NCBI RefSeq assembly: GCF_022846255.1
Contig: NZ_AP025682.1
Direction: 5' to 3' (one strand)
DNA length: 64,000 nt
Origin: Escherichia coli
GTDB taxonomy: Bacteria; Pseudomonadota; Gammaproteobacteria; Enterobacterales; Enterobacteriaceae
In this document: positions 63,001-64,000 of the stretch, one piece after another
How positions within the stretch are numbered: the first letter of the stretch is position 1
Layout: every line of letters starts with the position of its first letter
Made by a program: the position numbers

Positions 63001-64000
63001 CTACCAACCTGTCTGAAGCGCAGTCCCGTATTCAGGACGCCGACTATGCGACCGAAGTGTCCAACATGTCGAAAGCGCAGATTATCCAGCAGGCCGGTAA
63101 CTCCGTGCTGGCAAAAGCCAACCAGGTACCGCAGCAGGTTCTGTCTCTGCTGCAGGGTTAATCGCCGTAACCTGATTAACTGAGACTGACGGCAACGCCA
63201 AATTGCCTGATGCGCTGCGCTTATCAGGCCTACAAGGGGAATTGCAATTTATTGAATTTGCACATTTTTGTAGGCCGGATAAGGCGTTTACGCCGCATCC
63301 GGCAACATGAATGGTAATTTGCCAGCAACGTGCTTCCCCGCCAACGGCGGGGTTTTTTCTGCCCGCAATTTACCGGTAACCCCCAAATAACCCCTCATTT
63401 CACCCACTAATCGTCCGATTAAAAACCCTGCAGAAACGGATAATCATGCCGATAACTCATATAACGCAGGGCTGTTTATCGTGAATTCACTCTATACCGC
63501 TGAAGGTGTAATGGATAAACACTCGCTGTGGCAGCGTTATGTCCCGCTGGTGCGTCACGAAGCATTGCGCCTGCAGGTTCGACTGCCCGCGAGCGTGGAA
63601 CTTGACGATCTGCTACAGGCGGGCGGCATTGGGTTACTTAATGCCGTCGAACGCTATGACGCCCTACAAGGAACGGCATTTACAACTTACGCAGTGCAGC
63701 GTATACGTGGCGCTATGCTGGATGAACTTCGCAGCCGTGACTGGGTGCCGCGCAGCGTGCGACGCAACGCGCGTGAAGTGGCACAGGCAATAGGGCAACT
63801 GGAGCAGGAACTTGGCCGCAACGCCACGGAAACTGAGGTTGCGGAACGTTTAGGGATCGATATTGCCGACTATCGCCAAATGTTGCTCGACACCAATAAC
63901 AGCCAGCTCTTCTCCTACGATGAGTGGCGCGAAGAGCACGGCGATAGCATTGAACTGGTTACTGATGATCATCAGCGAGAAAACCCGCTACAACAACTGC

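Follow-up and report, generated by a model that had tools for sequence, protein, structure and literature searches.

The 3′ end of the window, that is, of the whole 64-kb stretch of Escherichia coli DNA analysed here, displays the fliD / fliC-fliA gene order known from this species. The fliC gene codes for a flagellin that is assigned to the FliC/FljB family in the 100% identical record of E. coli Nissle 1917, and the spacer of 319 nt between fliC and fliA is occupied by two inverted REPs and an intrinsic terminator. A sequence search with the segment 63100-63480 gave the 100% identity to Nissle 1917. The promoter upstream of fliC, TAAAGGTT-N11-GACGATAA, has two mismatches to the sigma-28 consensus TAAAGTTT-N11-GCCGATAA, and just downstream of it lies GACGGCG, the sequence with which the fliC (-70) transcript begins in the work of Melamed et al. 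(2023; eLife 12:RP87151, PMC10578931). Judged by this promoter motif, the sRNA FliX, discussed below, would be synthesised within the fliC transcript in a sigma-28-dependent manner. Divergent from the fliC promoter, a sigma-28 consensus with a single mismatch (TAAACTTT-N11-GCCGATAA) is present upstream of fliD at 61152-61178 on the minus strand, and the -10 consensus GCCGATAA recurs at 63448-63455, about 25 nt upstream of the fliA GTG. The stretch 63383-63480 is invariant in all the aligned strains, with either a long or a short fliC 3′ UTR, and is presumably the fliA promoter region. A hidden coding or antisense feature at the fliC end was considered and rejected, as only a spurious ORF of 45 aa overlaps this region and no promoter-like site was found in it. 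A translation-linked effect of the REPs, which concerns REPs located at most 15 nt from the stop codon, was rejected as well, since REP1 begins 43 nt past the fliC stop.

The sequence-only reading had assigned two REPs and a terminator to the approximately 200 nt that follow the fliC stop codon, at 63162-63362. Both REPs and the terminator stem were located, and these coordinates proved accurate, running from the first base past the stop to 4 nt beyond the U-run (Table 1). The 64-kb window contains two occurrences of the 14-nt REP tail pattern CTTATCMGGCCTAC, searched for with up to one mismatch: 63220-63233 (+) and 63270-63283 (-); the mean number of matches in 100 shuffles was 0.02, and none of them (0/100) reached two. 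An inverted-repeat scan delimited the REP2 palindrome at 63274-63303 and revealed that REP1 and REP2 are mutually complementary. REP1 is a short z-type unit of 29 nt (z1 or z2). The linker that follows it carries, on the minus strand, the sequence ATTCAATAAATTG, with one mismatch to the IHF consensus WATCAANNNNTTR, and can be regarded as a candidate IHF site, proposed from the sequence only. The stem of the terminator, composed of seven GC pairs, extends over 63336-63352 and is followed by TTTTTT; the terminator is presumed to constitute the Hfq-binding 3′ module typical of Hfq sRNAs.

Table 1. Features of the fliD-fliC-fliA region and of the fliC 3′ UTR (positions in the window).
Feature	Position	Strand	Evidence or context
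fliD	59702-61108	-	window 3′ end
fliC promoter, sigma-28 (FliA) type, parental for FliX	61271-61297	+	consensus match
fliC flagellin CDS, 595 aa, parental mRNA of FliX	61374-63161	+	ORF list
Full-length FliX ortholog, ~195 nt	63165-63359	+	K-12 fliX alignment, primer SM044
Left flank motif of BIME-1-type repeat, CTGAGACTGACGGCAACGCCAAAT	63181-63204	+	common to artJ, dppA, pfkA, ybdG/nfsB and fdhE copies
REP1, z-type palindromic unit, GCCTGATGCGCTGCGCTTATCAGGCCTAC	63205-63233	+	inverted-repeat and REP tail scans, sub-threshold Rfam naRNA4 match
Long L-type linker between REPs, 36 nt	63234-63269	+	kept in all sibling copies; sub-threshold Rfam ES036 match, E = 2.5e-4
FliX-S, ~106-nt processed form, the more active one in K-12	63254-63359	+	primer SM673
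REP2, y-type palindromic unit, inverted relative to REP1, GTAGGCCGGATAAGGCGTTTACGCCGCATCCGGC	63270-63303	+	REP tail and inverted-repeat scans, partial naRNA4 match
Right flank motif of repeat, holding the FliX seed	63304-63335	+	motif common to other BIME-1 copies
FliX seed UUGCCAGCAACGUG	63319-63332	+	between REP2 and terminator
Intrinsic terminator of fliC/FliX: 7-bp GC stem, 3-nt loop, U6	63336-63358	+	terminator scan
fliA start, GTG	63481	+	downstream of fliC

That a 3′-UTR sRNA, FliX, arises from the end of the fliC transcript had been stated correctly. In the RefSeq record of K-12 MG1655 (NC_000913.3) the ncRNA fliX (b4827, "small RNA FliX") of 195 nt is annotated at 2001912-2002106 on the fliC strand, with its 5′ end 4 nt past the fliC stop. 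In the syntenic position of the window, the segment 63165-63359 is identical to K-12 fliX at 184 of the 195 nucleotides in a global alignment without indels, and it matches the Nissle 1917 record at 100% identity. The fliX cloning primer SM044 (TTGTAACCTGATTAACTGAGACTG) maps to 63165, with CC in the window replacing its first two T residues, and the fliX-S primer SM673 (GAATTTGCACATTTTTGTAGGCCGG) matches at 63254 with all its 25 nucleotides (25/25). The seed core CAGCAACGUG is intact at 63323-63332, including, at 63325-63327, the GCA triplet of the seed (GUCAGCAACGUG) that is altered by the mutation M1 described below. The first two bases of FliX (63165-63166) vary among strains, with CC in the window, UU in both K-12 and Sakai, and UC in further strains, and because of this polymorphism the exact 5′ cleavage point of the full-length form may differ. 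The window copy agrees with K-12 FliX in locus and length, in the sequence at the FliX-S 5′ end and in a seed core that includes the M1 triplet; terminator type and sigma-28 parental promoter are the same as well. With a probability of about 90%, the segment of the fliC 3′ UTR can be considered to encode the already described Hfq-dependent sRNA FliX. The finding of FliX as such is already known, every defining feature of this RNA that can be tested on sequence, the full duplex with rpsS aside, is present here, and the copy in the window is one more ortholog, in a strain of the Nissle 1917 type, and nothing beyond that.

A scan of 60800-64000 against Rfam 15 in E-value mode gave no FliX match, only REP-derived families below threshold and noise. 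Membership of the naRNA4 family (RF02564) was rejected at 42.0 bits against a gathering threshold of 59.5, with only the REP hairpin part aligned, and so was that of ES036 (RF02751) at 34.2 bits against 37.6. The REP325-derived nucleoid-associated RNAs naRNA4 and ES036/CssrF (RF02751) have REP and linker sequences in common with FliX, but belong to another locus and context. Exact-pattern scans with CAGCAACGTGCTTCCCCGCCNNCGGCGGGG and AGCAAYGTGCTTCCCCGCCNNCGGCGGGG, covering the seed and the terminator in one genome per species, yielded zero matches; even the E. coli representative was unmatched, so that they are uninformative on other species.

In K-12, FliX is a sigma-28-dependent RNA of approximately 200 nt originating from the fliC 3′ UTR, while FliX-S of about 100 nt "includes one of the REP sequences downstream of fliC" (PMC10578931). 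FliX is cut from the fliC mRNA, as its level falls after treatment with a 5′-phosphate-dependent exonuclease, and the endogenous RNA is enriched by co-immunoprecipitation with Hfq (PMC10578931). The earlier suggestion of RNase E as the processing enzyme found no support: the main text of PMC10578931 makes no mention of RNase E and leaves the nuclease unnamed, the processing being deduced there from the exonuclease sensitivity. By homology with K-12 we infer processing and Hfq binding of FliX in the Nissle-type strain as well. The K-12 RNA pairs within the coding regions of fliC, rpsS, rplC, and rpsQ, and many of its chimeras with fliC and ribosomal protein mRNAs were recovered by RIL-seq (PMC10578931). 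Over-expression of FliX, and to a greater degree of FliX-S, resulted in fewer flagella and less fliC mRNA and flagellin; over-expressed FliX/FliX-S also repressed rplC, rpsQ, and rpsS-rplV reporter fusions and reduced the activity of the flgB and fliL promoters (PMC10578931). The sRNA represses genes of the S10 operon besides fliC, lowers the activity of class 2/3 flagellar promoters and exerts a late negative feedback on flagella synthesis (PMC10578931). The seed mutation M1, GUCAGCAACG to GUCACGUACG, abolished binding of FliX-S to rpsS in vitro, and the compensatory change rpsS-M1, CACGCUGCUGAUAA to CACGCACGUGAUAA, restored it (PMC10578931; both sequences were taken from the gBlocks of that paper). 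Introduced into the K-12 chromosome, fliX-M1 caused slightly more flagella late in growth and left motility unchanged, and a FliX phenotype was recorded in mixed culture (PMC10578931).

The predicted fold of full-length FliX (195 nt) has an energy of -71.4 kcal/mol and z = -3.6, that of FliX-S (106 nt) has z = -4.1, and both are better than all of the 200 shuffles. In the full-length fold the inverted REP1 and REP2 pair into one long hairpin, and the left flank CUGACGG (63186-63192) pairs with the 5′ part of the seed (63318-63325), while in FliX-S REP2 makes a hairpin of its own. The REP1-REP2 hairpin has an AU-rich apical loop of 10 nt, predicted to be single-stranded, into which the 5′ end of FliX-S (63254) falls. 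The fliC transcript initiated at the sigma-28 promoter would end at the terminator (63336-63358), and its full-length FliX part would be folded by the inverted REPs into the long hairpin; cleavage in the apical loop would then give FliX-S, with its 5′ end at 63254 in the inter-REP linker, and would free the seed from the left flank CUGACGG. The freed seed would pair with the coding regions of fliC, rpsS, rplC, and rpsQ, if the K-12 result carries over by homology. FliX-S may be more active in K-12 because processing unmasks the seed; the calculated probability of the seed being unpaired, computed on the K-12 sequence, rises only from 0.43 in the full-length form to 0.52 in FliX-S.

Compared with K-12 FliX, the window allele carries 11 differences, all of them substitutions. 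They affect the 5′ end twice (CC for UU), the linker twice, the 21 nt immediately 5′ of the seed core five times and the terminator loop once; the remaining one reduces the U-run from 7 to 6. In the validated K-12 duplex with rpsS, UUGUCAGCA and the following CGUG pair with CACG-C-UGCUGAUAA, and RNAduplex recovers exactly the same pairing. With U changed to C at 63322, directly 5′ of the seed core, this duplex loses an A-U pair and has a C-A mismatch in its place. Among the eight alleles aligned, C at 63322 is found in this one only, K-12 and six others having U, and the core AGCAAYGUGCUU is conserved in all eight; the target site in rpsS is 100% conserved in 5421 of 5425 genomes. The RNAduplex energies at the rpsS site, which leave out intramolecular structure and Hfq, are -23.3 kcal/mol for K-12 FliX, -21.1 for Sakai H7, -20.2 for N31, -19.8 for ATCC 8739 / E14, -17.1 for the M1 mutant of K-12, which no longer bound in vitro, and -15.5 for the Nissle-type allele of the window. 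The changes in Sakai and N31 turn pairs with rpsS into G-U wobbles. The Nissle-type allele is therefore predicted to weaken the rpsS duplex. The duplexes predicted with rpsQ and with the fliC 5′ region are alike for the K-12 and window alleles; those of the seed region with the fliC 5′ region are diffuse (-17 to -18 kcal/mol), do not discriminate between the alleles and cannot be matched to Figure 4D of PMC10578931.

FliX is not a constant component of the E. coli fliC locus. Of 5426 complete E. coli genomes, 3502 contain its full-length form, defined as a match over at least 80% of the 195 nt, with 94.8-100% identity; it is absent from 1923 of the 5425 genomes with any match (~35%), whose fliC-locus matches do not start until the terminator. 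In the four short-form loci examined, the fliC-fliA spacer of 163-165 bp contains neither REPs nor the seed, and the same terminator lies within about 20 nt of the fliC stop; the terminator is thus kept in genomes with long and with short fliC 3′ UTRs. In strain R11, with the short form, the terminator and the downstream sequence are exactly as in the window, and its fliA allele, WP_001087463.1, is also that of the long-form strains E14 and 2822. Since R11 combines the short form with the fliA allele and terminator of long-form strains, the long and short states seem to go together with the fliC allele, the breakpoint being the 5′ edge of the terminator. The regulatory role of FliX is dispensable, because about 35% of the genomes are devoid of its full-length form and the phenotype of fliX-M1 in K-12 is mild. 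No mention of the strain polymorphism of FliX was found in the literature searched, and it may have been reported elsewhere.

The whole body of FliX including the seed is one copy of a dispersed composite repeat of the BIME-1 type (63181-63335). Megablast matches to other loci start at query position 17, corresponding to 63181, and among the matches listed sibling copies are located in the 3′ UTRs of artJ, dppA, glnQ, pfkA, nudE, and fdhE, and a further copy, antisense to the genes there, lies between ybdG and nfsB; all are alignable over about 150 nt with both flanks. The repeat is composed, in order, of the left flank CTGAnACTGATGRCAAA...AAAT (absent from the glnQ copy), a z-type REP, the linker TGCAATnTATTGAATTTGCA, a y-type REP, and the right flank ATAAACAAAGCGCACTTTGTCAGCAAyCTGA. 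The 36-nt linker is conserved across eight loci, and the median number of places with the right-flank motif alone is 16 per E. coli genome (range 4-26). The FliX seed resides in this right flank (…TTTGYCAGCAAC…; consensus ...GCGCACUUUGUCAGCAAUCUG), and where the repeat consensus has UCUG, in the 3′ part of the seed, the FliX copy reads CGUG. Because of this replacement the rpsS duplex of K-12 FliX is longer than those of the sibling motifs, whose predicted energies at the rpsS site range from -14.5 to -19.5 kcal/mol vs -23.3 for K-12 FliX. The artJ and pfkA copies in K-12 are in the sense orientation. A GC hairpin and a U-run come 0-6 nt after UUGUCAGCAA in artJ, pfkA, and nudE, just as they do in fliC. 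The K-12 RefSeq record has no ncRNA annotated in the 3′ UTR of pfkA or artJ. The copies in artJ, pfkA, and nudE could represent unrecognised FliX-like RNAs.

Judged by its architecture, the element in the fliC tail is a bona fide BIME-1-type element, with REP1 as z1 or z2 and the IHF site as a candidate: one y and one z REP are arranged in inverted orientation, the linker is long and conserved, and the element occurs as a single copy, these two REPs being the only ones in the window. Boccard and Prentki reportedly described in 1993 the RIB (RIP) elements, consisting of a pair of y and z REPs with a long L linker to which IHF often binds, and found mostly where transcription units have their 3′ ends. 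The FliX body resembles BIME-1/RIB elements in its inverted REPs, long linker with an IHF-like motif, single copy and position at a transcription unit's 3′ end, but the fliC copy lies right against a strong terminator, within a sigma-28 transcript of very high expression, and is documented, in K-12, to yield a trans-acting Hfq sRNA. BIME-1 was defined as z1 + y present in a single copy with a long conserved L linker, often with an IHF site (Ton-Hoang et al. 2012, PMC3333891). Other Hfq-binding or 3′-UTR sRNAs with a REP insertion are GlnZ class III, from the K-12 glnA 3′ UTR, and MgrR of E. fergusonii; like FliX, GlnZ and MgrR vary in length between strains or species by REP insertion, the REP forming a long double-stranded stem. 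In GlnZ class III and E. fergusonii MgrR, however, the seed lies outside the insertion, and the GlnZ seed is kept in the forms without a REP, unlike that of FliX, which is located inside the repeat flank and is missing from strains with the short UTR.

The same architecture is what would be expected if the REP pair acted mainly in cis as a BIME, its hairpins blocking 3′-to-5′ exonucleases and stabilising the very abundant fliC mRNA, and its linker DNA binding IHF (RIB/RIP) between the fliC and fliA units, with little trans activity of FliX in this strain. Sibling copies in many unrelated 3′ UTRs, and the roles described for REPs, namely stabilising mRNA, acting as terminators and binding IHF, gyrase, and Pol I (PMC3333891), are in line with such a function, as is the rpsS duplex of the window allele, predicted to be no stronger than the one formed by the M1 mutant, which lost binding. 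A predominantly cis role nevertheless seems doubtful, given that trans activity was demonstrated in K-12 by seed and compensatory mutations (PMC10578931), that the window retains an intact seed core CAGCAACGUG and terminator, and that the predicted rpsQ and fliC 5′ duplexes are alike for both alleles; moreover, the cis and trans roles are compatible and may coexist.

It is also worth considering that the element is a selfish or neutral repeat insertion, with FliX being a stable by-product of decay and the measured effects coming mostly from over-expression. The association of endogenous K-12 FliX with Hfq, its RIL-seq chimeras and the mixed-culture phenotype make this explanation unlikely, as do the conservation of the core in the eight alleles examined and the fact that FliX differs from the consensus of the repeat precisely in the seed's 3′ part, where the difference lengthens the rpsS duplex. 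In its favour speak the 1923 genomes that lack full-length FliX, the short 3′ UTRs of about 20 nt at the four loci examined, the boundaries between the long and short forms, which are those of the dispersed repeat, and the slight effect of chromosomal fliX-M1 with unchanged motility.

A further, more speculative proposition, for which we would give rather long odds, is that FliX is a domesticated mobile BIME-1 copy with a seed derived from the right flank, that the artJ, pfkA, and nudE siblings form with it a family of Hfq sRNAs with a common seed, and that the target range of the Nissle-type allele is shifted. Neither the origin of the seed in the repeat nor the FliX-like architecture at the sibling loci is mentioned in the literature searched, and both may have been reported elsewhere. 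As full-length FliX is absent from about one third of the strains and its alleles differ next to the seed, the results obtained in K-12 on the post-transcriptional control of flagella cannot be assumed to hold for pathogenic or probiotic strains. If the repeat did supply the body of FliX together with its seed, this would provide a concrete route from mobile repeats to new 3′-UTR regulators, and sibling RNAs would be predicted at other loci.
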